The notes beneath the pieces were generated by a model. The model was not told where the DNA came from, did no database searches, and saw only the letters and a list, made by a program, of their open reading frames with translations. Made by a program: the position numbers and the translations under genes. From an uncultured archaeon (GTDB lineage Archaea; Thermoproteota; Bathyarchaeia; Bathyarchaeales; Bathycorpusculaceae): a stretch of DNA of 64,000 nucleotides. Location of the stretch: the NCBI GenBank assembly GCA_963782915.1, contig CAWALK010000018.1, positions 160,001-224,000 of the forward strand, in the 5' to 3' direction. Of this stretch, positions 66 through 29,804 are shown piece after piece. How positions within the stretch are numbered: the stretch's first letter is position 1; the number at the start of each line of letters is the position of its first letter.

Positions 66-2671
66 TTATGGCTTTTTTCTAACCATCAACGCTATCATTA
101 AACCGACAACGATGATTGCTATGAATAGACCAGCGATTGCGGGTATGAAGTACAGATCAGCCATTGATGGAGCGGGTGTTGGTAGTGGTGTAGCGGTTGC
201 TGGTGCGTCGAGTACTGTGAAGGATGTTTCTTGGTTTGATGGCCAATATCCGTTGTTGCCTGCGAATGTTGCGATTACTGTGTATTTGCCTGTAATGTCT
301 GGGGACCATGCAATAGCTGTAGTAGCCGGTTGCGTCAGTGGTTGTTGTTCCGATTGTGCGGTAGTTTCCGTTTGCGTCGACGACGTTTATGGTTACTTCA
401 ACGCCGGTGAAGTTGGTTGGGCATGGCTGCTGTTGGTAGATGTATCCCATCCAGTCTTTCATGCTTGCGTCAGATGAGACTGGGACTCCGTTGGGGAAGC
501 GTGCTGCTTGCTCGTTTTGTTTTGTGCCTGCTGATATGTCGGTGACTGAGCCTTCAATGATGACTGCTTCGCCGAATGTGGATGATTTTGGTCCTGCTTG
601 TACGGTGGTTTGGCTTGGTCCTCTTCCTAGGCTGTAGATTTGTTGGTCATAGCTGTTGAAGAGTACTGAGTAGCCGTCTGCGATTGCGTAGCTTTCGCCT
701 GCTGAATTCGCCGGTGGCTGCTGAGAGTGTCCATAGTTCGGTTCCGTCGGTTGCGTTGACTGCTCGTGCGAGTGCGCCTTTGTAGATTGGTGTTTCGAAG
801 GTGTGTTCTGTTGTGACTAGGTAGACTATGCCGTTGCCGATGGCGTTGATGAATGTTGGGTATGGTCCAGGGACTTGGAAGCCACTGTTTGTGGTGTTGC
901 CTGCTCCGCCGTTGCCATATGTCCATAGGACTTTGCCTGTTGCCATGTCATAGCAGTGGAGTATGCCTGAGTATGCGCTGCTGTATATGCGGCCGTATGC
1001 TACAACGTTTGATAGTGTACCGGGTCCTGTGCTGCCATAGTAGTCAAGTGCTGGTTGTGGGTCACTTATCCATAGTCTTGCGCCTGTTCTTAGGTTGAAG
1101 CCTACGAATTGCTGTGTTTGTCTGTATGATTCACAGAAGTAGCCTGCTTGTGCGTCTGCCTCCTGCATATGAGATGGTGGTGATGTTGCCTGCTGGGGGT
1201 GTTACGGTATTCCACCATAGGACTTGACCGATTGCGCCTTTGGATGCGTTGAGGTTGACTCCGAAGTATGTGTATGGGGCGCCTGTGTCGCCTAATGCTG
1301 GGTATGAACCGTTTCTGCAGAGTAAGATGTCGTTGTAGAATGCTGCACGATGGTTGGTGATCCGGGTTGGTTATTGCGCCAAGATATTGAGGCGTTCTGT
1401 GTGTTTGCGTTGAGGGTAGTCGTAGAATTGGCTTTGGCTTGCGTTAAGGAAGGTTACGCCGTTGACAGTGGTGGTTTGTGGAGCCCATGCAGTGCTGTAT
1501 CCGTTCCACATTTTGCTTGCGTTCCATGAGGACAAGTACCAGTCAGGTTTTGCGGTTGTGCCGTTGTTGTAGAACATGTATCGGATTTGTTCGCCTAATG
1601 GGCCGATTACTGTTGTTCCTGAGGGTACGTTGGTGACGTTGAAGAGTGCTTTTCCTGTGTCTGCATCGTATACTTGTGCAAAGTTGGCTGTACATAGAAG
1701 TGCTGGGTAGACACCGTGGAAGTTAGGTGTTTCAAGGTCGTAAATCATTGCGAATGATAGTGCGGGTACGTCGCTTCGTCTCCAGACTTCTTGTCCGGTG
1801 CGTAAGTCAACGCAGACTGTGTCTCCGCCGTTAGCGCTAAACGACAATGGTTCTTTGTAGTAGATTCTTCCGTAGACAATTATTGGGTTAACGAATCTTT
1901 GAGCGTAAGCTGTTCCTTCGAAGTATGTGTTTGCTTGGATTGCAAAGTTGTCGTCTCCGACTACTCCGCCTGGTTGGACTTCTTTTGTCCACATTACGTG
2001 GCTTGTTTGGGAGCCAACTGCGCTGTCTGTGAATTGGCGTTGGTTTGGTCCTAACGATCCACCGTATCCTGGTGAACCACTGCCTAACCAGTTAGAAGCG
2101 ATTGAGTACCATGCTGTGTTTTCGCCGTATACTGGACGTGCCCAGTATTCGGTTGGAAGTGGTGCTATGGAGTACGTATGCGATTGGTTCTTCTTGTACA
2201 GTTAGAGTTGTTGAGGCTGAGCTTGGCAGGTAAGTGTCGTTTTTGAATATGTGAAGTTGAGAGGTATGGATAGTCGTTTACTTTCTGTCCGGGGTAATCG
2301 AAGGTTAAGTTGTATGTGCCAACTTGTGTTGGTGTGAATGAGTAGCCTTGGTTTGAGGTGGTGTCTTCTACTGTTTCAAAGGTTTTGGTTGTTACTTCGC
2401 CGTCTGGTGCTGTGATGGTGAGTTTGTAGTTGTGGAATCGGTAGTTGTTGGTCATTAATGTGTCAGCGTATGTTGGTGTTAGGAATAGGTAGATGTGGGT
2501 TGTTTGGCCGACGCCGATTGGGTTAATTGAGACGAATATGTGGGCAAAGGTTGGGATGTCCCATGCCGGTGTATGTGCGGTTGCGTTTGGTGTGAATGCT
2601 ATTGATGCTCCGATTGTTACGATTAAGAGAAGGGCTAAGATTGCTATCTTTTGGTTTCTTAATATGTGCAT
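66..2671 (-). CDS. Secreted/membrane-anchored PQQ-binding-like beta-propeller repeat protein (frameshifted into several ORFs)
   Basis: Consecutive minus-strand ORFs 2165-2671 (signal peptide), 1371-1994, 647-1168 and 157-462 carry PQQ-type repeats (CVDLRTGQEVW, CYDMATGKVLW, AVNATDGTELW). A C-terminal TM segment plus RKKP ends at TAA 66-68. Indels are probably sequencing errors. Confidence 0.8.
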
Positions 2672-3225: not shown

Positions 3226-3759
3226 CTATGTTTTGGGGAGTTTTTGGTAGCTTCTCATGGCTTCTTCAACCACTCTGATTGCTTCTGCACGATTTTGCCA
3301 GCCCTTAATCTTCACCCAACTGCATGGTTGGAGCCGCTTGTAAGTGGAGAAAAATTCTTGGATTTCTGTTAGTTGATGCTTCTGCACGTCGGCGATGTCG
3401 TTGTATCCTTCAAAGCGTCTGTCGTTTGCGAGTACGGAGAGGATTTTGCTGTCTTGGCCTTCTTCGTCTTCCATTTCTAAAACGCCGATTACCCGCACTT
3501 TCGCCACTGAACCCACCACCAAAGGCGCAAACGAGAGCGCCATAATATCCAAGGGGTCGCCGTCAGCCCATATTGTCTGGGGCACAAAACCGTATTCAAC
3601 CGGAAACACCACCGACGATGGAATGATGCGGTCGAGCACAAACGCTTCCCAGTCGGGGTTATACTCGAATTTGCTGCTTGAGCCGCCGGTGACTTCGATA
3701 ACCATGTTGAGTTCGGCTGGTGGATTGGTGCCTGCCGGTATTTGCCGCCAAAAATTCAT
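3226..3759 (-). CDS. ppa: Inorganic pyrophosphatase (family I)
   Basis: KFEY, LDR, YGFVPQT, DGDPLD and DSKIL motifs. Confidence 0.95.
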   Translation of the reverse strand: MNFWRQIPAGTNPPAELNMVIEVTGGSSSKFEYNPDWEAFVLDRIIPSSVVFPVEYGFVPQTIWADGDPLDIMALSFAPLVVGSVAKVRVIGVLEMEDEEGQDSKILSVLANDRRFEGYNDIADVQKHQLTEIQEFFSTYKRLQPCSWVKIKGWQNRAEAIRVVEEAMRSYQKLPKT

Positions 3760-3814
3760 TCTGCCACACCAAAAGGGTGTGAGGGAAAGTGTGATTTAAG
3801 CGTAGTTGCAGGGG

Positions 3815-4594
3815 CTAATTCGAGAAATACTTTTCCAGTTTGGAGGTTCCGGATTTTTTGAGTACGGCAGCGCAGTCTTTGGGGTCAAGCGCCTTAAACT
3901 CCAAACCCATAGAAGCCAACAGCCCCTGTACATCCTTAGCTAAACTTGGCGCAACCAAGACGGCGCGGACTTCACGGTTTACTTTGGCTTTGATGGGTTC
4001 AATGTATTTGGAGAGTTGCAGCACGTTTTCTTTAGAAGCTGTTTTACGTTTGACTTCGATGATGACGAGTTTGCCGTCTTTGTCTTCGCCGTAAATATCC
4101 ACAAAACCTGGCTCAACATGTTTTTCCCAGCTGATCGGTTTAAATCCTGCTTCAAAGAGTTCAGGTTTGAGCAGTATGGCTCGGTGCATGTCGTCTTCGC
4201 TTGCATGCAATATAAATTCGCCTGAATCCAAGAGGTTAAGGGCGGATACCATGAAGACTGAGGCGAAAGTTACTTTGACGCTTTCATGTGGTTTTCGGCG
4301 AACCCCATGCACTTCTAATTTGTCGTCTTTGACTTCAACATGGAAAACGGATCCGGAGGGTTGCCAATTTACGGGTTCATATCCGGTTGGGCGATGCACA
4401 AGCAAGGAGCCATCGGATTTGATGATTAAGAGGCGTTCGCCGTTTTCGAGTGTGGAGTTGGCTCTGCCGGCATAGTGCACATGGCAGTCTCCTGCAACGA
4501 TGAGTGTTTTGCGTTGTGTGAAGGCTTTCTCGATTAGCACCGCTGCTTCCGCTAATGTGGGTTCTTTTAGGATTGAGAGTTTCTCAGACGCCAA
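3815..4594 (-). CDS. nucS: Mismatch-specific endonuclease NucS/EndoMS
   Basis: Y-GRA, IIKSDGSLLVH, PVNWQP, VDI..IEVKR and QLSKY motifs. Confidence 0.93.
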   Translation of the reverse strand: MASEKLSILKEPTLAEAAVLIEKAFTQRKTLIVAGDCHVHYAGRANSTLENGERLLIIKSDGSLLVHRPTGYEPVNWQPSGSVFHVEVKDDKLEVHGVRRKPHESVKVTFASVFMVSALNLLDSGEFILHASEDDMHRAILLKPELFEAGFKPISWEKHVEPGFVDIYGEDKDGKLVIIEVKRKTASKENVLQLSKYIEPIKAKVNREVRAVLVAPSLAKDVQGLLASMGLEFKALDPKDCAAVLKKSGTSKLEKYFSN

Positions 4595-4659
4595 ATTTTT
4601 CAGCCAACGTATTTTAGGTGGAGCTTGGGTACATAAGAATTCTCGAAGGAAACCAGAAG

Positions 4660-5205
4660 ATGGCTTGGAGAAGCAAGCGTAAAGTAATGCATGCTTACGA
4701 TGTCACAGCAGAAATGTATGATGAACGCTACTCAGGATGAGCAGCACCGCAAATACCAGAGGGCGCTGGAGAATGTGGATGTTTTGGGTGCGGCTGTGTT
4801 GGATGTGGGTTGCGGTTCAGGCTTATTCTTTGCTGAAATTGCCGAGAAAGCCAAATTCGTTGTCGGGCGTTGATGTTTCCAAGAAGCTTCTGCTAAAAGC
4901 CAAAGACCAATGCAGGCGGCAACGTTTTTGTTGTGCAGGCAGATGCAGATCATTTGCCCTTCCGCGATGGCTTCTTCGATGCAGTTTTCTCGTTTACTGT
5001 ACTGCAGAACATGCCCAAACCAGCTGTTACGTTACTGGAGCTGAAACGGGTTGCAGTTCAAGGCGGCAAAATTGCGGTTACCGGTTTAAAGAAAGCTTTT
5101 CCGCTCGAAAAATTCATGGATCTTGCGGAGGGCAGCGGCATGCAACTCGCAGCTTTCGTGGATGAAGAAGCCATAAACTGCTACATCGCGGTTTTAGCTG
5201 CTTAA
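4660..5205 (+). CDS. Class I SAM-dependent methyltransferase (frameshifted)
   Basis: ATG 4660 reads MAWRSKRKVMHAYD..AEMYD; later frames give VLDVGCGSG, GVDVS and ADADHLPFRDGFFDAV. Confidence 0.8.
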
Positions 5206-6482
5206 CAGTTGCACATCAGCTACTTCGCCGGTATCCGCATAGATGCCGACAGCGGCTTCGTTTATGCCGCCGGAATAGGTTTTGTCCAGTTGCATAACGA
5301 TGTACCAGTATGGGACAAGCGCGACAGAGTTGCTTCGTGGGTGAGGCAGCATTTGGGCGGATATGGTTTGTTGGCGTTGAAGTTGCTGGTTTGTGTTCCG
5401 TTGATGGTCCATGTGAGGGTTTTTAGGTGGTTTTGGGCGATTGTGGTTGCTTGGTTTTGGTTGATGTTTAGGTCTGCGTTGCCCACGGTGAAGAGGAAGT
5501 AGCCGTCTGTTAAGGCTGTTAAGACGTGGTTGTCAAAGGTCATGCGTAGGCTTTTGGCGCTGAAGTCGATGCCTTTTTCGGTGTACATCCAGAGGAACTC
5601 GGTGCTGCTGCCGTGTTTGGGTGATTTGGAGTTTCATGTTGCCGGATACCGCTGTGGTAACTGCGCCATCGGTTTGGTTGACGGTTGCGAGCAGTGTTGC
5701 TCATTTCTTGGAGGTAAGCATCACCCGAATAAGCTCTGTAGCGCTCGAGTGCGGCTTTGGCAGTTTCCAATATGCTGCTCGGCGGATTCTCGGTGAGAAT
5801 GGGTGCGCTTTCGGTGGAGGTGAGTTGGTAGCGGCTAAGATGATTTTCCCTGAAACGGTAACTTGCATCCAAATTGCTCGATGCACTGGTTAAGCTGTAT
5901 TTGAGGACTTCTTCCGCCACGCTAAAATCATCTCGGTACTCCAAAGTGTTGCTTAGCAGAGTGATTTTGTAGCGGTTAGTGTCGATTTGGACTACGTTGC
6001 GGGTGAGGTTGGCGACTTTGGTTGCGCCGATTCCCCATGAGAGCAACTGCTGATTTTCCGCTGTGAGGCTGCTTTGGTCTGCCGCAAGCTGATTTAGAAC
6101 CGTGTACTGGTAGATGCCAAAGCTCGAGAGAAACAGCACCGCAACCATCAAAACGGCGAAGGCTGCTTTCCATTTGCGCGCCAGCTTTTTTGGGACGCCG
6201 TCTGGTTTCAAGTTCAGGAGCTTCCTCCACACCTTTCATGGCGGATACGGTGGCTTTGCCGAAGCTCGAGAGCCTGGTATTGCCCATCATCCATTTTGGC
6301 AATCAGTTCGCCGAGGCTTTCGAGATGATAAGTTAAATGTGAGCTGGATACGCCAAGTGAGTTCGACCATCTCCATAAACGAGCATGGGTTTATCGTTTA
6401 GCATGCGCAGGATTTTGCGGCGTGCAGGATGCTTAAGCGATCGGAACATGATTGAGTAGATTTCTTCTTCGTTGCCGGACAT
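5194..6482 (-). CDS. ArsR-type winged-HTH protein fused to a TM helix and an extracytoplasmic domain (frameshifted)
   Basis: N-terminus MSGNEEEIYSIMFRSLKHPARRKILRML, then Y-LSSFGK, TM segment WKAAFAVLMVAVLFLSSFGIY and a polar C-terminal region spread over ORFs 5540-6232, 5262-5588 and 5194-5412. Confidence 0.7.
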
Positions 6483-6943: not shown

Positions 6944-7536
6944 CTATGGATTCTTCAGTAGCGTCTGAGCCAGAAGCAGCCGCCAAGTCGTCAACTCGGA
7001 GAGGTTCGCCAGCCCCTCAGCGTTGAGGTAATTATTTGCGGTTTCGTCAAAGAGCACATTAGCAGACGGCGGCAAATCCTCATCCACCCACAGGATGTAA
7101 GTAATCGGGACCAAGTTGAATGCGGGAACCTCAACCGATGCCTGCCCAAACTCCAGCTTTTTGCCGCCCAACAAAACCGCAGCCTCAACAAGCAAATCAG
7201 GACAACCGCCAAAACCCTTAGCAATCGGATCAACCGCTTTGCGAACAAAAGCGTTCTCGTAAGCAACCCCACCAGAAAAATCCCTAAACTTCACCAACCT
7301 ACCACCCAGGGACTTTTTGGCAGCGGTGGAGTATTCGATGAGCAACTCGGTGATCTGGTGATGCATGGTCGGGTTACTAACCTCAACGGTACAATGCCTT
7401 TTTGCAGATCATCTTGGAATTCGCCTGTCACTAAATCAAGCGAAAAACCGAGAAACCAAAAAACGTTACTATCTCCAGCGTCAGTCAATTGCCGAAGCCG
7501 TAGCTGCTGCTCTAACGTAAGGTTTAAGGTGACCAC
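6944..7536 (-). CDS. DUF3786-like protein (frameshifted)
   Basis: LLIEY..LVKFRDFSGGVAY..F, PITYILW-DED-PP-AN-LFD pattern; the N-terminus lies in ORF 7291-7536. Confidence 0.7.
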
Positions 7537-8753: not shown

Positions 8754-9371
8754 TTAGTCTTCCGCTTCAGGCTCTTCCCCAGCTTGTTCTGGCTGCTCTT
8801 GGGCTTCGGATTTCTGCTTCTCTGCGCTTAGCAGCATCTCGATGAGTTTTTTCTCGTCCACTTCTGCCCTTGTGCGCCAATCCAGATACAGTTGCCCTTT
8901 GTCGTCTTGCGTAAGGTAGCCGTAGCGTATGTAGCGGTCGAGGTTTAAGCCGATTTTCCAGTTAGGCATCTTCTCGCCTAGCAGTTTTTCGACGTCTTTG
9001 CGTGTTGCCTGCCCTTTTTTGCTGACGATGTAGCTGATTGTTATGGCTAAGCCTGCGAGGTCGTCAACTCTCCAACCCATCAACTTGTCCTTTGATGCAA
9101 CGTCGCGCAATGCTACGAAGAAGCGGGCTTTATCCAGCTCCTCAATGGTTGGTTTCTCAGGGGTCTTCTCTTCCTCAAAAACCGTTTTAACCTGCATATC
9201 AAGCGGTTTTAAGTAATCGTCCAAGACATCGAGCACTTTGGGGTACTCGCTGCCCAAGGCTTTGTGGAGTTCCCAGCCCTTCACGCCTGGTTTAGCGTGG
9301 CGTTTGTAGAATAGCATCTGGGTGGCTTTCTTGACTTTGCCTGCGTAGAGGCCTTTTCGTTTTTGACTCAT
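8754..9371 (-). CDS. Tandem winged-helix KITE subunit, Nse1/Nse3(MAGE)-like
   Basis: About 200 aa with two predicted WH domains; GLAITISYI..GQAT..GYL..LYLDWRTRAEV resembles the MAGE/Nse3 WH-B pattern (GLL..IL..I..GN..YL..W.GPRA.AE). Last gene of the SMC operon, ATGA overlap. Confidence 0.65.
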   Translation of the reverse strand: MSQKRKGLYAGKVKKATQMLFYKRHAKPGVKGWELHKALGSEYPKVLDVLDDYLKPLDMQVKTVFEEEKTPEKPTIEELDKARFFVALRDVASKDKLMGWRVDDLAGLAITISYIVSKKGQATRKDVEKLLGEKMPNWKIGLNLDRYIRYGYLTQDDKGQLYLDWRTRAEVDEKKLIEMLLSAEKQKSEAQEQPEQAGEEPEAED

Positions 9372-10200
9372 GGCTGTTTACCTGTTTTCCATTTTTGCCA
9401 GTCTTCTACGGATACGGCGATTGGAATCGACTGGGACTGCACCGTCAACGCCTCAACCCGCGGCTTATCGAAGGGCAGTATAAACATGGTTTCTTCTAAC
9501 CTGTCGATTTCCAAGGTGGCGTATCCGTATGTTATTAGGAAGCTTGTTAGGAATGCGCGTTGGACGGTTTCTTCGTAGGTGTCTGCGCCGATGAAGTCCC
9601 AGTAGGTGATTTTGCCGTTTGCGGCTTTTTGGCGACTTTAAGTTTAGCTTGCCAGTAGCATTCGAGTTCTTCCCCGAACTCTTTGTCGCTCAAAACGCGG
9701 GCTTTGACCATTTCTTCTCGGCTAACCGAACCCATCGCAACAGCGGAGACATCGATGTCTTTCCATCGGTCACCCAACGGAGCCAATGCATCCCAATACA
9801 GCAATCCCTGGGCTAAACTGTGCAGGCTGAGCTGCTCAGACTCCACAAGGGGCGTCCAAGCTGACACAAACACGTCGACCATGCCCTGTTTGCTGGTCTG
9901 GCGAATCTTCTCTTCGAGCAGAAAGGGGTCTGTGTAGAGTGAGGTTGAGCGCTGTTTCACCCATTCACTCTGAATCTTGATGACGGATGCAAGGTGGTGG
10001 AGGGCTTCAGCATCTAATCTTAGCTCTTCGGGCTGGTCCCAATGCGGAAAATACTGCCTCACAATCGCGATTATATCGTCCACGTTTAGTGTAAATGGGT
10101 CAACTTGGCGGCTTTCAATGGCAACACACATTTCAACAATGCGTTCCAATCGCTCTTTGCCCAGTTTCTTCTCATGCTTCTCTGTTTGGATGGTTGGCAT
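9368..10200 (-). CDS. Kleisin subunit (ScpA-like N-terminus, Nse4-like C-terminal WH; frameshift near 9650)
   Basis: N-terminal VDPFTLNVDDII resembles ScpA DPW-ID. After the indel the alternative frame reads KITYWDFIGADTYEETVQRAFLTSFLITYGYATLEID, matching the Nse4_C pattern. Overlaps both neighbouring genes. Confidence 0.7.
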
Positions 10201-12118
10201 TAGGCGACCTCACGGACTAAGCTTTTGCCTTCGAGGTTCTGGACGGTGATGACGTTGGCGTCTTGTGCTGCAAACGTGATTTGGCTGGGTGTGATGACGA
10301 CGTATTGGGCTGAGGCGTCTTTTATGAGGGCGACCAGGACTTTGGCGATCATTTCTCGGTTTTTGGGGTCCATGTGGATGTCGTATTCGTCGACTGCTCG
10401 GAATGGGCTGCGGACATGCTGCTGCAGTGCCAATAGGAAGCCCATGGTTGCGGTGGTTCTTTCTCCGCCGCTCTGCGTATAAGCATCCAATGCTACGGGT
10501 CTGCTGCCTTTGAAGCCCAACATAAATGTCCAATCCAGCAGATTCGATGTCTACGGCGTTTGAAAGCTTCACTTCACCCGTCGCTAAAGTCTGACCCATG
10601 ATACGCTGGTATTCAACGTTGACGCGGGTAAGGAGTTCCTCCATGACGGTGCGCCAAGCGGACATGCGGGTTTTGACTTCTTCGAGGGTTTTCTCTCGGT
10701 TCTCAGCGACTAGTTGCGCTTTTTCTTTGAGTTCTAAGTAGAGTTTTGAGTAGGATTCGTATTGGCGCTCGATTTCTTCTGAGACGGAGGTTAATGCGGC
10801 TAGGTGTCCGTCGGTTAAGCCCATTTCTTCTTGGATTTCGCCTGCAGCTTTTGAGGACTGCGATGCGTTCGCCTGATTCTTGGGCTTTTGCGAGGGCGGC
10901 GTTGAGTGTGTCTTGGGCTTCTTTGAGGGTTTTCTCGATTGTTTTTCCCTCGTTAACTGAGCGTTCACGCTTAAAATCCAAGAGTGCGAGGCTGACGCGT
11001 TTATCCAATGCGCCCGCAGAGGTTTTGTCTGTGGATTCTTCGAGTTTGCCGAGTTTTGTTTGGTTAGCTTTGATTTGGACGGAGGCTTTTTGGATTTGCT
11101 GCTGGGAGGTTTTGAGCAGTTCTTTGAGGTTGTCGGCGCGGAGAAGTTTGAATTGGTTCTTGTTAGCGGCTGTTTCTAACAGTTGCGCTTCGCCGAGTAA
11201 CTGCTCAATCAGCGATTGGGTGGATTCATTCTGGGCAATTTGCCGTTCAAGGCTTATGCGTTCGTCATAAGCGCCTTTGATTTCGCCCCGAAGCGTCCTC
11301 TGCTGAATTTCTTGCCCATCCAATTCGCCGATGATAGATTGGCGTTCGTCCTCGATTTTGCCCAGCGCCTGCTGGTTCTTGTTAAAATTAGCCTGCAAAC
11401 TCTTCACTATGGCTTCTTTGCGTTCAACTTCTGCCCAAACTAATTCGCGGTCCAAAAAACGCCTTTTAAGCTGCAATTGCTTTTTCTCTTGGAATTTCTC
11501 GTACTGTTCCCGCCAGTAATTGAGTGTCTGTTGGGCTTGTTCGAGGAGTTTGCCGACGGATTCTTCTTGGCTTAAAATGCGGGTTAGCTTGGTTTTGGCG
11601 CTCAGTACGTTTTCTCGGAAAGGCTCCAATCCCACGGCATCTTCGACCATTCGCAGCTTGTCGACGTTGCTCAAGACGCTGAATTGTTCCACCATGTTCT
11701 GGTGCATGATGATTAGCATGTTGTCTGGGTCTACGCCGAATTTGCCCAGCAATCGTTCTACGTCTTGTTTGGTGGCGTTGCGGTTTTCGAGTTCAAAGAA
11801 GTATTTGCCGTCCCGTCGCAACACGCGGGTTAGGAAGAGCTGGTCTTTGTTGTATTTTGGTTCGGGACGCCTGTTGCCTTGTTTGCTGTTATCTAAGATG
11901 AGGGTGACGCGTGCTTGGTCTTGTCCCCAGCGAATTAAATCGCTAAGTTTACGGGACCGTTCCGTAGATGTCTGACCCAAACCCACACTAATGGCGAGCA
12001 GTAGCGAAGATTTTCCTGCGCCGTTGGGTCCCCCAATTACGTTAACGCCCTTCTTGAAAGGTACACGGGCGTACTCGTAACTCATGAAGTTTTCAACGAT
12101 AAGTTCTTGAATTAACAC
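10200..12118 (-). CDS. Short SMC5/6-like ATPase (about 640 aa; two frameshifts)
   Basis: ENFMSY, Walker A GPNGAGKS, Q-loop IMHQ, coiled coil, signature QSGGER and Walker B SPFRAVDEYDIHMD, across ORFs 10703-12118, 10210-10968 and 10200-10523. Confidence 0.88.
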
Positions 12119-12283: not shown

Positions 12284-13072
12284 TTATTTTTCGCGTTTAA
12301 AAGAGCCGTGCCCGCCCTCTTTGGTGACGTTGGCAACGACGGTTTCGCTTACTTTATCAAGCACTTCTTCAGCGCGTTTCCAAGTATCCGCAGAAACCTC
12401 AACACTGTACTTTGGTGCAGCGATAACGGCGAATTCGACTTTGGCATCTTTTGCTTTCGTCGCAGCTTTGGCAGCACTAAAGGCTTCTTTGATGCAGCGC
12501 ACACCGTTTGGAGTCATGCAACGGACTTCAATGATGCCGCGGACCTGTACCAGCTTAATTTTTATGCGTTCCTCTGCAACCTGCACAATGACTTTGGTGA
12601 TGTCTTCGGGGATACCCATCTTGGTGAGAAACTCGGGGCCCTCTTTAACGGTCTTCTCGAAACCCTCGTATAAGCCGATTTTTTCTTCAAGAGGAGCACC
12701 AACGGTCTGGTACATTTGCTGTAGGGGCACACCCATCTTGTCAGCTACTGCTTTGAGTAAGGCGTCTCCTTTGCGGTCTTTCTTCCAAGACTTAATCTTC
12801 TCAATACGTTCACGTTTGGTGACACGGCGGAGGGATAGGTCGATGTGTCCTTTCTCGACATCCACACGCAGAACCTTTAGAACCATCTTTTGGTTTTCAC
12901 GAACAAAATCTCGCACGTTCCGTATGCGGGCGCTGGAGATTTCTGAAATATGCAAAAAGCCTCTTCGGTGATATTCATCGAGGTTTGCGTAGGCACCGTA
13001 ATCCATCACGGTTTCAATCGAAGCGATTACTAGATCGCCTGGTTCTGGCCATTGAGGTTTGTTTTCGGACAT
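12284..13072 (-). CDS. eif2a: Translation initiation factor 2 alpha subunit (aIF-2alpha)
   Basis: WPEPGDLV, S1 domain GFLHISEIS, KGHIDLSLRRV, AAPKY; likely start at MSENK (13072). Confidence 0.95.
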   Translation of the reverse strand: MSENKPQWPEPGDLVIASIETVMDYGAYANLDEYHRRGFLHISEISSARIRNVRDFVRENQKMVLKVLRVDVEKGHIDLSLRRVTKRERIEKIKSWKKDRKGDALLKAVADKMGVPLQQMYQTVGAPLEEKIGLYEGFEKTVKEGPEFLTKMGIPEDITKVIVQVAEERIKIKLVQVRGIIEVRCMTPNGVRCIKEAFSAAKAATKAKDAKVEFAVIAAPKYSVEVSADTWKRAEEVLDKVSETVVANVTKEGGHGSFKREK

Positions 13073-13240
13073 TATTTCACTCTTGTTACTCTGATTTCGT
13101 GAATTAGAACTAACAGGAAAAGACTTGTTCCGTTCAAGATAAGGATTTCCACTTGCAAAACCCCAAAAACCCAGAAGCGCATGAAAAATAAACAAGTTTA
13201 TACTACAACATTTTTATTTAGATACACACTTGGTACCATT

Positions 13241-13621: not shown

Positions 13622-13867
13622 GTGCAACAAAAATTGAGTGAACCAGACTATCCATACCCCAAAAAACCTCTTGAACCGGCCCAAGGCACAACAGCTCCAC
13701 CCCCCATGCCGCCACCGGAACCGCCTGTCCCGCCCAATCCGCCGCCGCTAAGCAACCCAACTCCTAACAAGTTCCGATGTCAAACATGCGGCAAAGTCTT
13801 CACCACAAAAGAAGAATTAACCATGCACATAGAAACAGTGCATATGAGCCCAAAAAAGAAAGTCTAA
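13622..13867 (+). CDS. Small Pro-rich C2H2 zinc-finger protein
   Basis: FRCQTCGKVFTTKEELTMHIETVH. Confidence 0.8.
   Translation: MQQKLSEPDYPYPKKPLEPAQGTTAPPPMPPPEPPVPPNPPPLSNPTPNKFRCQTCGKVFTTKEELTMHIETVHMSPKKKV

Positions 13868-16882: not shown

Positions 16883-16886
<4 letters not shown>
16584..16886 (-). CDS. rpl30e: 50S ribosomal protein L30e
   Basis: [15 protein letters not shown] and GDSEIL motifs. Confidence 0.95.
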
Positions 16887-20720
<3,834 letters not shown>

Positions 20721-20721
20721 G

Positions 20722-23700
20722 TTAAGCCTTCTCCTTTAGTCTTAGTTTGGGGGTGATGCATAGGCTTTGAAGCTCTTGGAGCAGTAGCTTGAAAGCGTAA
20801 GATACGATTACTGGTGCAATCTTTGCTTTTTCGTCGCAGATTTTGCAGACATAACGCCTTTGCTTCATGTCGAAGTAAGCGATTTGACCGCAGTTCTCGC
20901 AGATGTAGAGTGTGTACTTGTCGGATTCTTCTAGTAATCTGTCGCGTAGTAGCAGTGCTGCGCCGTGTCCGATGAGGCAGTCTCGTTCCATTTCTCCGAA
21001 TCTGAGACCACCACCGCGGGCGCGACCTTCAGTTGGTTGGCGAGTGAGCATTTGTACTTGACCGCGAGCACGAGCGTGAATCTTGTCAGCGACCATGTGG
21101 TGCAGTTTCTGGTAGTATACTAATCCGATGAAGACGTCGGCTACGAATTTTTCGCCGGAGGTGCCGTTGTAGAAGACTTCGCTTCCAGTGTGGCTGTATC
21201 CGAGTTTTATGAGGCTTTTGCGTATTTCATCTGGGCCTTCGTTTGCGAAAGGTGTACCGTCTGCTGGTCTGCCTCTTGCTGCGGCTGCTTTGCCTGCGAG
21301 TGATTCAATGAACTGGCCGATGGTCATTCTTGAGGGGATTGCGTGTGGGTTGATGATTAGGTCTGGAACCATGCCTTCTTCTGTGAAGGGCAGGTCTTCT
21401 TGTGGTACGATTAAGCCGATGACTCCTTTCTGTCCGTGGCGGCTTGCGAATTTGTCGCCGAGTTCTGGGACGCGTTGGTCGCGTACGCGGACTTTGACGA
21501 GTTGGCTTCCTTCGCCTGACATTGTTACGAATATGCCGTCTACGATGCCTGTTTCGCTTGGGCGCATGTCAACGGATGTGTCGCGCATGCTGGGTCCTTT
21601 GACTTCGAATTCTTTGTATTCTTCAAGGAACCTTGGAGGGCTGATTCTGCCGATTAAGACATCTCCGCCGACAACTTGTGATTCTAAGCCGATTATTCCG
21701 TCGGGTTCTAGGAGTCGGTAGTATTGTTCTCCGCGGTAGCCTCTTGTGCCTGCTTCTGGAACAGTGAATTTGTCTTTTAAGCCACCGAGGTATTGGCGAC
21801 ATTCTGCCTCATAGATACGGTAGAATGTGCTGCGTGCTAAGCCTCGCTCGATTGAGGCTTTGTTGAATATGATGGCGTCTTCCATGTTGTAGCCTTCGAA
21901 GCTCAAGACTGCTACGACGCAGTTTTGGCCTGTGGGGCGTTGTTTGTATCCCATGACGTCCATGTTTTCTGTTTGGACAAGTGGGACTTGTGGGTAGTGT
22001 AGTATGTGGCTGCGGCTGTCGACGCGGTGATGGAAGTTTGTGCCATAGACACCTAGTGCCTGTTTGGCCATGGCTGCTTGGTATGAGTTACGTGGTGACT
22101 GGTTGTGTTCTGGATATGGAATGGTTGATGCGCATATGCCAAGGATTGTGAATGTTGCGATTTCTGAGTGGGTTGTTTGTGGTACGATGGAGTCGTATGC
22201 TAGGGCGATGTAGGCGTTTTCTTCTTCTTCAGCGTCTAAGTATTCGATTAAGCCGTTTTTGATGACGTCTTCCCATGTCCATTCGCCGAGTCCGATTTTT
22301 TCGAAGTGTTTGCTTTGTAGTTTGGGTATGCCGTTTTCGACGATGATGAGTGGGCGTCTTACGCGTCCTTCGTCGCAGTTAGCGTGGACTTCTTCGGTTT
22401 CGGTTTGGGCTTTTGAGAAGTATGTTACGTTGACTTCTGTTGAGATTTCGCCTGCTCGTCTTTTTTGGCGGAAACTCTGGACCATTTCCTGTGGGTTGTT
22501 GCAGTAGCCGATTATGTTTCCGTCTACGAAGACTTTGGCGCCGTCAATTCTTAGTTCGCGTGATGCTTCGTATGCTGGGACTGTTCCCATTTCGAAGAGT
22601 AACTGGCGGATGCGATCGGGGTTTACGCCCACAGCGATGGAGGCAGATAACGCGAGGTTCTTAACAAGACCGCAGTTTGAGCCTTCAGGTGTTTCGTTGG
22701 GGCATAATCTTCCCCAGTGAGTGGGGTGTAAGTCTCTGGCTTCGAAGTTAGGTTGACTTCTGGATAGTGGAGACTGAAGTCTGCGTAGGTGGCTCAGTGT
22801 TGAGATGTAGTTGGTTCGGTCGAGGAGTTGTGTGATGCCGACTCTGCCTCTTCCCCAGTTGCCTGTTGCCAGAGCGTGTTGGAATCGCTCAGTGATGATG
22901 CCCGGGCGGACTGCGGCTGAGACAGTTATGATTGGGCCTTTAACGCCGATGCGTTCAAGTTGGTATTTGATGTCGCGTGTTAGGTTGCGGAAGGATACTC
23001 GGAAGAGGTCTGCTAGTAGTGGGCCACCGAGTCGTAGACGTTTGTTTTTGAAGTGGTCTTTGTCGTCTGGTTGGCGTCTTCCGGTTTTTAGTTGGATGAC
23101 GCGGTATGCCATTTCGCCTAGGAAAATGGCTTTTTCTTTGCGGTTTTTGTCGCTTCTGCCCAAGTGCGGTAGGAAGTTTTTGTCAAGGGCTGTTTCTGCT
23201 TTTTGAAGTCGGTATTCTTCGACTTGTCCGTGGGCAACGCGGTTGCCGATGAAAAGGATTGCGTCTTGGGGTGTGTCTACGCCGATTGCTTTTTCGAATG
23301 ATGCTGCGAGTTGTGTTTGTGTGTCGCTGTCTAGTGAGACTGCTTCGGCGATGTCTTTGTCTTTTTCCATGGTGAGTGCACGCATGATGACGACGAAGGG
23401 GATTTCTGTTGGCACTCCCGGCATGGTGACGTAGATTGCGTCGTCTGATTTGAGTTTAAGTTCGATTCTGGCTCTGAAGCCTACTGTTGTTGAGAAAATT
23501 TTTGCTTGATAAACTGGTGCGGTTCCTTTTTCGTCGATGTCGACGATTACGCGGTTAGGTGCCAAGTCTTCCATGGCGACGATGACGCGTTCGGAGCCGT
23601 TAACGACGAAGTATCCGCCTTGATCGTCTGGGTCTTCGCCGGCTGCGATTAATTCTTCTTTGCTGAGTTGGCTGAGGAAGCAAAGTTTGCTCTTCAGCAT

Positions 23701-24096
23701 AACTGGGATATTCCCGATGTAAACAAGTTCTGTATCTTGTTCTCTGCCATCGATAACTGGAGTCATTTCCAGCGCGATTGGCGCGGAATACGCCAAGTTT
23801 CTTAGGCGTGCTTCCATTGGGTAAATTTCATGTTTTGTTCCATCTACTTCGGTTGCGTATGGACCGGTGATGCGGCTTTGTGGGTCAATGACCCATATTT
23901 GGCCGAGTTTTACTTTGTATGGGCTTTCTGGCACTTCGATGGGGATTTCAGCTACTTCGTCGACTACTTCTTGGAGTCCGTGGTCGATGAATTCGTTGTA
24001 GCTGTCGAGGTGCTGTCGGACTAAGCCTTTATCGTTGTAGAATGTTTTTAGGAGGTTATGGATGTCGTCTTTCTGGATTTTTTGTGTGGTGGTCAA
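20722..24096 (-). CDS. rpo2: RNA polymerase subunit Rpo2 (B, unsplit)
   Basis: 1124 aa; GDKFASRHGQKG, GLRFGEMERD and a C-terminal Zn ribbon. Confidence 0.97.
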   Translation of the reverse strand: MTTTQKIQKDDIHNLLKTFYNDKGLVRQHLDSYNEFIDHGLQEVVDEVAEIPIEVPESPYKVKLGQIWVIDPQSRITGPYATEVDGTKHEIYPMEARLRNLAYSAPIALEMTPVIDGREQDTELVYIGNIPVMLKSKLCFLSQLSKEELIAAGEDPDDQGGYFVVNGSERVIVAMEDLAPNRVIVDIDEKGTAPVYQAKIFSTTVGFRARIELKLKSDDAIYVTMPGVPTEIPFVVIMRALTMEKDKDIAEAVSLDSDTQTQLAASFEKAIGVDTPQDAILFIGNRVAHGQVEEYRLQKAETALDKNFLPHLGRSDKNRKEKAIFLGEMAYRVIQLKTGRRQPDDKDHFKNKRLRLGGPLLADLFRVSFRNLTRDIKYQLERIGVKGPIITVSAAVRPGIITERFQHALATGNWGRGRVGITQLLDRTNYISTLSHLRRLQSPLSRSQPNFEARDLHPTHWGRLCPNETPEGSNCGLVKNLALSASIAVGVNPDRIRQLLFEMGTVPAYEASRELRIDGAKVFVDGNIIGYCNNPQEMVQSFRQKRRAGEISTEVNVTYFSKAQTETEEVHANCDEGRVRRPLIIVENGIPKLQSKHFEKIGLGEWTWEDVIKNGLIEYLDAEEEENAYIALAYDSIVPQTTHSEIATFTILGICASTIPYPEHNQSPRNSYQAAMAKQALGVYGTNFHHRVDSRSHILHYPQVPLVQTENMDVMGYKQRPTGQNCVVAVLSFEGYNMEDAIIFNKASIERGLARSTFYRIYEAECRQYLGGLKDKFTVPEAGTRGYRGEQYYRLLEPDGIIGLESQVVGGDVLIGRISPPRFLEEYKEFEVKGPSMRDTSVDMRPSETGIVDGIFVTMSGEGSQLVKVRVRDQRVPELGDKFASRHGQKGVIGLIVPQEDLPFTEEGMVPDLIINPHAIPSRMTIGQFIESLAGKAAAARGRPADGTPFANEGPDEIRKSLIKLGYSHTGSEVFYNGTSGEKFVADVFIGLVYYQKLHHMVADKIHARARGQVQMLTRQPTEGRARGGGLRFGEMERDCLIGHGAALLLRDRLLEESDKYTLYICENCGQIAYFDMKQRRYVCKICDEKAKIAPVIVSYAFKLLLQELQSLCITPKLRLKEKA

Positions 24097-24633
24097 GTTT
24101 TTTTAGTTCTCCCATAAGTTATTTCTAAAATTAATGTGAATGCTGTGATTTGTGAGTGATTGGGTTTTTTTCAAGTTTACATTTCCTCCGATGCTGGGTT
24201 GTCCAACTTCGAAAAAGGATTCTCTAAACTTTTCTAAGAGCACAAACAGATGCTGCATAGCTAACTAATAAACCTTGTTATTGATTATGGTTGATAAGGT
24301 AAGTACTGGTAAAGTTTGAGGAGGGGTTTGGATGGAGCAATCGATAGCCTGTGCGTTGCATCCACGTTTTTCTGTGTCTAATTATAGAGTGGGTCAGCCT
24401 CATAAACTTTGCAATTTAGATGCTTTGCTGCTTTTGTTTTTTGGTTTTTCTAGTAACAGAAGAAGGAATAGAGCCCCTATACCCTTCTTCTTCCTGCGGG
24501 CTTGGCTGTAGCATCTGTTTTGGTATGTACGTTTGGTTTGGGTTGCAGGCTGATTGTGGAGAGATTTCTACAAGCAGAATAGGTTTTTTGATCTATTAGT
24601 AACAAGTTAGTCAAATAAGCCCATGTAAAGGTG

Positions 24634-28148: not shown

Positions 28149-28586
28149 TTACTGTTCAGCAGCCCATTTGCGTGCCGCAGCTAAATCACCCGCGTTTGGC
28201 CTGCCGCGTCGTGTAAAACCAAAGGTTTGTCCTAAACAGATGAAATAGTTCTCGCCCAACCGCTGACCTTTGGCTTCAAGCGTCTGTTTGACTCTTTCAT
28301 AGGCGAGTGTGTTGCTTGCGCCTCCGCCAGCCCACGTCATAAATAGTACAAACCGCTTGCCAATCCCCAAGTCAGCTGTGTTGAGGTAGTTTAGCAGCTC
28401 CACATAGGGTTCGCCGCCGCGGATGCCAGTGCCAAGGAAAACCAAGTCATAACCCTCAAGCGACAAAGTTGAGGCGTCAAAGGCTTCGGTTAATTTCACC
28501 GCTTTGCAGTTTACTTGGGCTGCGATTTCTTGGGCTACTTTTTCGGTGTTGCCGCGATGGGTTGAGTAAATAACAATAGCGTTCAT
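28149..28586 (-). CDS. Flavodoxin family protein
   Basis: YSTHRGNTEKVA FMN loop and YDLVFLGTG. Confidence 0.9.
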   Translation of the reverse strand: MNAIVIYSTHRGNTEKVAQEIAAQVNCKAVKLTEAFDASTLSLEGYDLVFLGTGIRGGEPYVELLNYLNTADLGIGKRFVLFMTWAGGGASNTLAYERVKQTLEAKGQRLGENYFICLGQTFGFTRRGRPNAGDLAAARKWAAEQ

Positions 28587-28594
28587 GAGACCAC

Positions 28595-29491
28595 TCAGGT
28601 TGGGCGTTCGGTTACGTTTACGTTGGCTGATGTTTCTATTTTTGCTTTCTCAATTTTTTGCATTATCGTTTGCAAAAGTTTAGCATCAGCCTCATAACCG
28701 ATGCTGTTACGTTCATTGGTTATCGCTACTTTTGCGGTTGTTCCCGAACCCAAAAATGGATCCAACACCGTTTCACCCCTAACACTAAACATCCGAATCA
28801 GCCGTTCCGCCACCTCATCGGGGTAAGCTGCAGTACGCCTCTCAAGTTCACTCGCGGTCTGCCTCGTACCCTTGAAATCCCAAATTTGGCTAAACCACAC
28901 ATCCCGCTGCACCTTCGTAAACTTGCTCTCATAACGGTCTTGCTGGTGGGGCTCGAATTTGCGCAGTTTCCCCTTCCTAAACAGTAAGATAAACTCGCAG
29001 TCCAATGTTACATAGGCGTTGGGGGGTAGGAAGCCTGAGCCTAAAAATGCGCCTTTACCCTTGTATTTTGGACGGTTCGTCGGTTTTTTCCATAGGATAT
29101 AGGGCAGGGTAGTGAAGCCGATTGTTTCGCAAACCTCAGTGATTCGGGAATGGTTGGGGAAGAGTTGGAATTTGCCGTTTATATTGCGTGTGGCGTCGCC
29201 GATGTTTATGGCTGCTATGCCGCCGTCTGCTAGGACGCGGTAGGTTTCTGCCCAGACTTTGGCGAGGTTTTCATGCATTAATTTGTATAGTTGCCGCACG
29301 GTGACGTCGCTGGCTGTTCGTTCAAGTTTGCGCCATAACGCCGCAATTTTGGGGTCAGCTTTACAGAAGAGTTCATCCCACATTGCTATCATGGGGTAAG
29401 GTGGTGAGGTTACCATTAGCTGGATAGAGCCGTCGGCGAGTTCGCTCATTTGTTGGCTGTTGCCGATTATGATTTGGTGCTGGGTGGGCAT
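28595..29491 (-). CDS. Site-specific DNA methyltransferase (N4-C/N6-A, beta class), orphan
   Basis: VTSPPY (motif IV) precedes VLDPFLGSGTT (motif I). Confidence 0.9.
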   Translation of the reverse strand: MPTQHQIIIGNSQQMSELADGSIQLMVTSPPYPMIAMWDELFCKADPKIAALWRKLERTASDVTVRQLYKLMHENLAKVWAETYRVLADGGIAAINIGDATRNINGKFQLFPNHSRITEVCETIGFTTLPYILWKKPTNRPKYKGKGAFLGSGFLPPNAYVTLDCEFILLFRKGKLRKFEPHQQDRYESKFTKVQRDVWFSQIWDFKGTRQTASELERRTAAYPDEVAERLIRMFSVRGETVLDPFLGSGTTAKVAITNERNSIGYEADAKLLQTIMQKIEKAKIETSANVNVTERPT

Positions 29492-29804
29492 GCGCTGGTA
29501 TGTATAGTTGAATGGGGCTTTTACTTTTGCGGTAAAAAATTTTGCAGATACTGACTGCTGTAAAGGGCAATATTGTCTTGTCTGCTATGTATGCATAAAG
29601 TTTCTTTTAGTAAACAATTTTCCCCACTTGCTTTAAGAAATCCGCCCCCATAATCAAAAAGAGGCTCGTTATGGTCATATTTAGGAAATATTTTAGGCTC
29701 TCACCCATGCATATTGACTTGTTGCTGACAAAACCCTACATCACAAGCTACGACGATAAACCTTTAAATTTGATCTTTCCCTTCAAGTCAGAGGCGACTG
29801 GCTG

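Follow-up and report, generated by a model that had tools for sequence, protein, structure and literature searches.

We analyzed a stretch of 64,000 nucleotides (the window) from an uncultured archaeon of the Bathyarchaeia, positions 160,001 to 224,000 of contig CAWALK010000018.1 in assembly GCA_963782915.1. [quoted passage not shown] Very probably, the region is a Bathyarchaeia copy of the archaeal 'SMC5/6-related' complex, which combines an SMC ATPase that presumably forms homodimers with a kleisin of the Nse4 type and a KITE protein of the Nse1/Nse3 type, and the frameshifts that interrupt two of the genes most likely are assembly errors. The homology of the three proteins, the translational coupling of their genes, their conservation and the intact motifs of the ATPase are directly supported. 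The operon is an ordinary member of a family already published and no new kind of system. The feature that sets its ATPase furthest from Smc5/6 is the missing hinge together with half-length arms, on which a first-pass annotation of this DNA had not remarked.

Organization of the operon

The genes overlap at both junctions (Table 1). The ATPase stop and the kleisin start have one base in common in the sequence ...gcc TAATG cca..., and the kleisin stop is overlapped by the KITE start in ...cc ATGA gtc.... The first-pass annotation had described three translationally coupled genes with TAATG and ATGA overlaps. Both overlaps are present in the sequence, and all the peptide strings that it had quoted are found on the minus strand. 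A scan for promoters and terminators found no more sites than in shuffled sequences.

Identity of the three proteins

The N-terminal region of the ATPase contains a Walker A motif (GPNGAGKS), followed by the Q-loop. Near the C-terminus the protein reads YTQSGGERTTATMGFLLALQQHVRSPFRAVDEYDIHMDPKNRE, and this part of the head carries the signature motif QSGGER, the Walker B motif FRAVDEYD and the H-loop. Pfam SMC_N matches the N-terminal piece with E=2.9e-21 and the C-terminal piece with E=1.3e-11. Among 8000 scored candidates, 4347 are homologs at E<=0.001. The best 120 of these 4347 are mostly 638-640 amino acids (aa) long, and JGI gives some homologs the name 'structural maintenance of chromosomes protein 5'.

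We built an ATPase profile (A2) from 23 sequences, four of them database homologs and 19 translated from the loci of other families. Walker A, the glutamine of the Q-loop, SGGER, the D-E of Walker B and the histidine of the H-loop are invariant in it. Against all PDB sequences, the profile scores 242 and 233 bits with Smc6 and 222, 219 and 202 bits with Smc5. The scores are 173 bits for prokaryotic Smc, 146 for Smc2, 131 for Smc3, 121 for Smc1, 113 for Smc4 and 45 for Rad50.

The kleisin reads KITYWDFIGADTYEETVQRAFLTSFLITYGYATLEIDR after the frameshift near 9624-9630. Its N-terminal domain is helical and is joined by a linker to a winged helix at the C-terminus (ITYWDFI...FLTSFLITYGYA). We found 2212 homologs at E<=0.001, the intact ones being 272-278 aa long. 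A precomputed Nse4_C domain is present in 37 of the best 120 of these 2212, and one NCBI homolog bears the name 'non-structural maintenance of chromosomes element 4'. Pfam Nse4_C matches the window's own C-terminal piece (9368-9604, minus strand) with E=1.7e-5 and 25.4 bits. It also matches 14 of 23 diverse family members at E<=0.01, the best with 3.4e-7. The best solved relatives found with a profile of the kleisin family are EID3 (E=9.5e-5) and yeast Nse4 (E=1.6e-4). The N-terminal part of this profile matches the ScpA N-domain faintly (E 0.28). SMC_ScpA has no match at E<=1 on any piece of the operon, and no ScpA family is found among the 23 kleisins at E<=0.01.

The KITE protein contains two winged-helix domains, a C-terminal helix and an acidic tail, and ends in ...LDWRTRAEVDEKK.... 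None of its 205 residues is a cysteine, and it therefore has no RING domain. It has 3544 homologs at E<=0.001. Among the best 120 of these, no Pfam domain is present, and the names, where given, are 'hypothetical protein' save in two JGI rows with an unrelated label. A profile built from 38 diverse members matches MAGE/Nse3 (1.1e-4), MAGE-G1 (1.1e-3), Nse1 (2.2e-3 and 2.6e-3) and Nse3 (5.1e-3). One designed repeat protein ranks above these matches, through four weak repeats.

The structure of the KITE protein was modeled with AlphaFold2 (AF2; predicted local distance difference test, pLDDT, 86.1). The top four matches of this model in Foldseek are Nse3 (1.5e-5), Nse1 (5.7e-5), MAGE-G1 and NSE1, followed by JetB (4.3e-4), MAGE-A4, ScpB (2.6e-3) and MukE. 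Alignment with VIA-align gave a Z of 13.1 for Nse3, with a root-mean-square deviation of 3.9 Å over 171 residues. The Z values are 11.1-11.6 for yeast chains of Smc5/6 entries, 9.4 for JetB and 9.1 for ScpB.

The comparison of each protein agrees with the first-pass annotation, which had read the genes as a minimal one-SMC/one-kleisin/one-KITE complex related to Smc5/6. It had described the ATPase as Smc5/6-like, and the profile puts Smc6 and Smc5 above canonical Smc, Smc1-4 and Rad50. The Nse4/EID-type winged helix that it had proposed at the end of the frame-repaired second gene is borne out by the Nse4_C match and by EID3 and Nse4 as the best solved relatives. The model of the third protein and its best structural matches, Nse3 and Nse1, fit the proposed tandem winged-helix, MAGE-like KITE. 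It had also expected annotation to leave both partners hypothetical. This is so for the KITE protein and fails for the kleisin, one homolog of which has an Nse4-type name at NCBI.

Conservation and predicted assembly

The first-pass annotation had asked for a synteny survey. We examined 20 loci from 20 families of the phylum. The kleisin and KITE genes are adjacent in all 20 loci, and the ATPase gene adjoins them in 19, which thus have the full three-gene order. A single SMC homolog is adjacent in each of these 19 loci. No further gene is common to all 20. In the exceptional genome (G039), the kleisin-KITE pair and a 599-aa ATPase homolog are on separate contigs (C7 and C17, respectively); another genome of that genus (G023) has all three genes side by side. 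With thousands of homologs of each protein and the same gene order in all but one of the 20 loci, the operon is more than a chance arrangement.

Of 301 genomes in the phylum, 153 contain a match to the KITE profile, as do 122 of the 263 good-quality genomes and 63 of 122 genera. The presence of the KITE is largely all-or-none per taxonomic family, and the operon family is single-copy in the 301 genomes. This distribution across the phylum looks vertical.

We also predicted the structure of a complex of two KITE proteins and one kleisin. The score was 0.56, compared with 0.00 for the best control. Agreement between the runs covered at least 71% of the contacts, with a pLDDT of at least 63 for the partner. 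Of 157 solved complexes, 116 attain the mark used for such predictions, and 2 of 215 mismatched pairs do so as well. Among predictions that score 0.60 or less, the passes comprise only 18 of the 157 solved complexes and both of the passing mismatches.

Predicted structure of the ATPase

An AF2 model was made on the intact homolog P0122, which is 96% identical to the window ATPase (pLDDT 84.9). The head is formed by residues 1-164 and 510-638. A long helix (165-317) leads to the tip, a five-residue low-confidence loop (318-322), and is followed by a returning helix (323-415), a joint-like break (416-448) and a last helix (449-509). The predicted coiled coil is antiparallel, about 150 residues long and ends in a bare hairpin. 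No globular hinge is present in this monomer model.

Pfam SMC_hinge has no match on any piece of the operon at E<=1, and no precomputed SMC_hinge domain is found among the best 120 of 4347 ATPase homologs. In this genome, it is found only in the canonical SMC (E 1.1e-21), which serves as a positive control. The middle region between the conserved bases of the arms measures 114-234 residues in the 23 A2 sequences, and the CxxC motif of a zinc hook occurs in none of these regions. The model and the profile thus describe an ATPase of half length, with arms predicted to end in a short loop and to lack both a hinge domain and a zinc hook.

Within the A2 alignment, conservation is lowest and indels are most frequent in the tip region, and the length of the ATPase ranges from 563 to 681 aa within the family. 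The alignment indicates that the arms vary freely in length near the tip. About 40 extra tip residues (A2 columns about 330-375) are present in three families of the same order (L041, L042 and L043), with proteins of 679-681 aa. In five other families the tips are 60-80 residues shorter, and the proteins measure 563-583 aa. Full-length matches to the ATPase, of 565-645 codons, are found in records titled Methanomethylicia, Thermofilales and Thaumarchaeota. The hinge-less half-length build is a property of the family and not peculiar to this window.

Comparison with known complexes

Yoshinaga and Inagaki (2021; PMC8665677) placed a TACK archaeal SMC clade, Bathyarchaeota included, at the base of Smc5 and Smc6. 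An archaeal operon in which an SMC is combined with a kleisin related to Nse4 and a kite resembling Nse1/3 was described by van Hooff, Raas, Tromer and Eme (bioRxiv 10.1101/2024.01.07.573240), in whose trees such archaeal paralogs group with Smc5/6, Nse4 and Nse1/3. With the SMC and the full operon in print, the newness of the three-gene system that the first-pass annotation had implied does not stand. Our operon agrees with the published archaeal complex in its three components encoded in one operon, in its occurrence in TACK taxa including Bathyarchaeota and in the canonical SMC operon alongside. It differs in nothing of kind; the window copy carries three frameshifts.

In the published account of the archaeal complexes, as far as drawn on here, a figure legend shows dimerization through hinges. 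We found no mention of half-length arms or a missing hinge in those parts of the literature on archaeal SMC5/6-related complexes, or on ASRP (PMC9389158), that were covered. The hinge-less build is under-reported, and it is the only part of our finding with some novelty value.

The eukaryotic Smc5/6-Nse1-Nse3-Nse4 complex is the source of the best-scoring solved relatives of all three proteins. As in that complex, the kleisin is paired with KITE and not HAWK proteins. Unlike the eukaryotic Smc5-Smc6 heterodimer, the single SMC gene of the operon presumably gives rise to a homodimer. Eukaryotes have both Nse1 and Nse3, whereas the operon encodes one KITE protein without a RING. The eukaryotic SMC proteins have a hinge and are ~1100 aa long; the operon ATPase is predicted to have no hinge and arms about half as long. 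Nse2, Nse5 and Nse6 are not found among the conserved neighbors of the operon; no search aimed at them was made.

Smc-ScpAB follows the same stoichiometric scheme, a single SMC, kleisin and KITE encoded by coupled genes of an operon. The operon might encode a second condensin-type Smc-ScpAB paralog, whose Smc5/6-like features are convergent or retained ancestral ones. The weak matches of the KITE protein to ScpB and of the kleisin to the ScpA N-domain would fit this explanation. So would a Foldseek search with the ATPase model, in which an archaeal Smc head comes first and Smc6 second, the subfamilies not being separated. However, the ATPase profile scores 202-242 bits with Smc5/6 and 173 with prokaryotic Smc, the Pfam match of the kleisin is Nse4_C and not SMC_ScpA, and both Nse3 and Nse1 outrank ScpB for the KITE protein. 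The published trees cited above also place the archaeal paralogs elsewhere. Canonical Smc is ~1170 aa long and contains a hinge, and the genome already has its own protein of this form. We consider a second Smc-ScpAB highly improbable.

The canonical operon of this genome lies on contig C12 (269435-274262), where a hinge-bearing SMC gene is followed by ScpB. SMC_ScpA has no match anywhere in the genome; a gap of ~880 bases before ScpB should hold the C12 kleisin. The genome holds two SMC systems, as the literature describes.

Short hinge-less SMC-like ATPases also occur in defense systems, and Wadjet JetABC(D) and MukBEF likewise combine an SMC, a kleisin and a KITE. The structural matches of the KITE protein include JetB and MukE. 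The intact ATPase homolog matches PADLOC models, all generic or distant (mad3 78.7 bits, LmuB 57.2, JetC 29.1). Restriction of extrachromosomal DNA is also an activity of eukaryotic Smc5/6. It is nevertheless very unlikely that the operon is an SMC-based system against plasmids or phages, of the Wadjet or Lamassu kind. The PADLOC scores are far below those with Smc6 and Smc5, and neither the kleisin, the KITE protein nor their neighbors match any PADLOC model. The ATPases of Wadjet JetABC(D) and MukBEF are long, with a hinge. No JetD/MksG-type or other nuclease is adjacent to the operon, as the first-pass annotation had pointed out for JetD/MksG; the neighbors are aIF2-alpha, a small open reading frame (ORF) and DUF3786. 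No additional gene accompanies the operon in all 20 loci. Its single-copy, all-or-none occurrence per family is unlike that of patchy defense islands.

LmuB of Lamassu, RecN and Rad50/ASRP are similar to the operon ATPase in having short coiled coils without a canonical SMC hinge. Rad50, ASRP and arcadin-4 also resemble it in a length near 600 aa, and its N-terminal piece matches NCBIfam models of the three with 63, 39 and 37.6 bits, respectively. It is barely credible, however, that the ATPase is an SMC-related protein of the Rad50, ASRP (ClsN/Sph) or arcadin-4 type with unrelated neighbors. These scores are far under the cut-offs (700-1087 for Rad50, 300 for ASRP and 860 for arcadin-4), and Rad50 reaches just 45 bits with the family profile. 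The similarity of LmuB, RecN and Rad50/ASRP to the operon ATPase is far lower than that of Smc5/6. The ATPase has no zinc hook, and it is coupled to a kleisin and a KITE protein, not to a nuclease effector or Mre11.

Frameshifts and assembly quality

The ATPase gene has two frameshifts, where the first-pass annotation had spoken of indels in general, and the kleisin gene has one. They were placed by tblastn with intact homologs. With the 638-aa homolog P0123, the ATPase is found in three pieces that are 94-99% identical to it. We compared the window with contigs from four public sequencing runs, all from relatives and none from the source sample; no public run contained more than 0.16 of the sampled words. 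At the first ATPase frameshift, the contigs of runs X2, X3 and X4 are one letter shorter than the window. At the second, the X2 and X3 contigs are one letter shorter. At the kleisin frameshift, the X2 contig omits one letter and inserts two and the X3 contig inserts one, a net change of +1. Over the 160 bases of one X4 contig, the sole difference from the window is the one-base gap at the first ATPase frameshift. Differences between the window and the relatives' contigs are at three-base spacing, at third codon positions, which is the expectation under purifying selection.

To estimate frame changes genome-wide, we started from 120 kb of a same-genus genome, in which 95 ORFs reach a length of 150 aa or more. 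Thirty were excluded with a best hit below 60% identity or a coverage below 60%, leaving 65 usable counterparts. Frame changes are found in 14 of these 65 orthologs, 19 in total or 0.30 per coding kb, across five contigs. The N- and C-terminal matches of the canonical SMC on contig C12 are likewise in different open frames. Because the relatives' contigs are free of all three indels and frame changes occur at ~0.3 per coding kb throughout the genome, the three frameshifts of the operon most likely stem from errors in an assembly rich in indels and not from decay of the genes.

Alternatively, an operon of the same kind could be truly decaying here, with the frameshifts as real mutations and the complex no longer made. 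The local density argues for this: three frameshifts in 3.4 kb (~0.9 per kb) are about three times the genome mean. The RNA polymerase genes of the same window (16886-24102, 7.4 kb) are whole, without a break, which would also fit decay. Good and bad stretches of the contig could not be told apart by their ORF coverage. Decay is unlikely, however, in view of the 14 broken orthologs on five contigs, which would be intolerable for a living genome (completeness 93.5%). The canonical SMC is split too, and so are the PQQ-repeat, methyltransferase and DUF3786 genes, all within the window's first 12 kb. The high identity of each frame segment to intact homologs, the position of the differences in the codons and the X4 contig, identical save for a one-base indel, all count against decay. 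As a practical point, broken genes of this genome are not to be taken as pseudogenes.

Evidence against the interpretation

Several points weigh against the identification of the operon as an SMC5/6-related complex with assembly errors, among them the local density of frameshifts and the Foldseek ranking of the ATPase model given above. The Nse4_C score of the window is just below the Pfam gathering score of 26, and the intact homolog P0241 scores 22.3 bits. At the sequence level, the kleisin and KITE profiles match solved proteins only modestly (E 1e-4 to 5e-3). The prediction with two KITE proteins and one kleisin lends weak support to the assembly. Since similar complexes (Nse1/3/4 and ScpAB) are already solved, its pass may reflect likeness only. 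The placement of the ATPase on the Smc5/6 side is suggested by profile scores and published trees, and the operon would belong to the published clade by its components, operon and taxa, not by accession number. The apparent absence of a hinge comes from a monomer model and from sequence, which are silent on dimerization of the tips.

Surroundings of the operon

Neighboring genes and the parts of the canonical SMC operon are listed in Table 1. Upstream, a protein of 81 aa (13622-13867, plus strand) has a proline-rich stretch and a single zf-C2H2 domain (E 4e-7). C2H2 zinc fingers are uncommon in archaea. Further away, the gene of an N6/N4 DNA methylase (28598-29584, minus strand) adjoins a flavodoxin-like gene (28152-28649, minus strand).

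Among the 20 loci of other families, 8 contain the gene of a Lhr-type helicase of ~950 aa (DEAD, Helicase_C, WH_Lhr and DEAD_assoc domains), oriented convergently to the KITE gene. It directly adjoins the KITE gene in L047, L048, L050, L051, L053, L056 and L058 and is further off in L042. In this window it is not beside the operon. This neighborhood hints at a possible link to DNA repair.

Table 1. Coordinates of the operon, its junctions and frameshifts, neighboring genes and the canonical SMC operon
Feature	Position	Strand	Remarks
SMC5/6-related ATPase gene	10200..12118	-	~638 aa read through; three frames in assembly (ORFs 10703-12118, 10210-10968 and 10200-10523)
Nse4-type kleisin gene	9368..10200	-	~277 aa read through; two frames in assembly
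KITE gene	8754..9371	-	intact, 205 aa
TAATG overlap	10198..10202	-	one base common to ATPase stop and kleisin start
ATGA overlap	9368..9371	-	kleisin stop overlapped by KITE start
ATPase frameshift 1	10846..10848	-	about residue 431; window one base longer than relatives
ATPase frameshift 2	10515..10516	-	about residue 535; window one base longer than relatives
Kleisin frameshift	9624..9630	-	about residue 195, variable linker preceding the C-terminal winged helix; relatives net one base longer
aIF2-alpha gene	12284-13195		upstream of operon
Small ORF			downstream of operon
DUF3786 gene	6944-7536		downstream of operon; in pieces (first 12 kb of window)
Unnamed gene	5194-6235		in pieces (first 12 kb of window)
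Methyltransferase gene	4725-5205		in pieces (first 12 kb of window)
NucS endonuclease gene	3818-4702	-	NucS_N + NucS_C; about 4 kb downstream of operon
Inorganic pyrophosphatase gene	3229-3795		adjoins NucS gene
PQQ-repeat gene	157-2671		in pieces (first 12 kb of window)
Canonical SMC, contig C12			SMC_N in two open frames (426 and 809 aa)
Hinge of canonical SMC, contig C12	271020-271343		
ScpB, contig C12	273822-274262		

Mechanism and implications

A mechanism can be proposed from the solved Smc5/6 and Smc-ScpAB complexes. Two ATPase heads would sandwich ATP. The kleisin would bridge them asymmetrically, its N-terminal domain binding the first head at the coiled-coil neck and its Nse4_C winged helix binding the second at the cap. 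Its linker would carry a dimer of the KITE protein. Heads, kleisin and KITE proteins together would clamp DNA on the engaged heads. The ATPase has no hinge or zinc hook, and there are therefore three options for joining the arms: pairing along their length, contact at the tips or no contact. By analogy, the task of the complex is probably chromosome maintenance or repair and not defense.

If the tips do not dimerize, the hinge-closed ring that is assumed for all SMC-kleisin machines is impossible for this complex. It would then be an ATP-driven DNA clamp proximal to the heads, with nothing but heads, kleisin and KITE dimer to hold it together. A conserved, widespread SMC-kleisin-KITE complex lacking a hinge would be a simple natural test case for the role of the hinge and the long arms, with a bearing on topological entrapment and loop extrusion versus mere clamping. 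Its small size would also make it a compact target for reconstitution and cryo-electron microscopy.

The operon is part of the prokaryotic lineage regarded as ancestral to eukaryotic Smc5/6 and thus bears on the origin of eukaryotic chromosome-maintenance machines. The case for this evolutionary significance has already been made in print, in the parts of the literature cited here. We suggest, at slightly less than even chance, that the whole TACK branch of SMC5/6-related complexes uses a natural 'mini-SMC' of ~560-680 aa, with arms of about half length and a bare, unconserved hairpin that lacks a hinge and a zinc hook. If this is true, either the hinge was lost in the closest prokaryotic relatives of Smc5/6, or the hinge and long arms of Smc5/6 were later additions.

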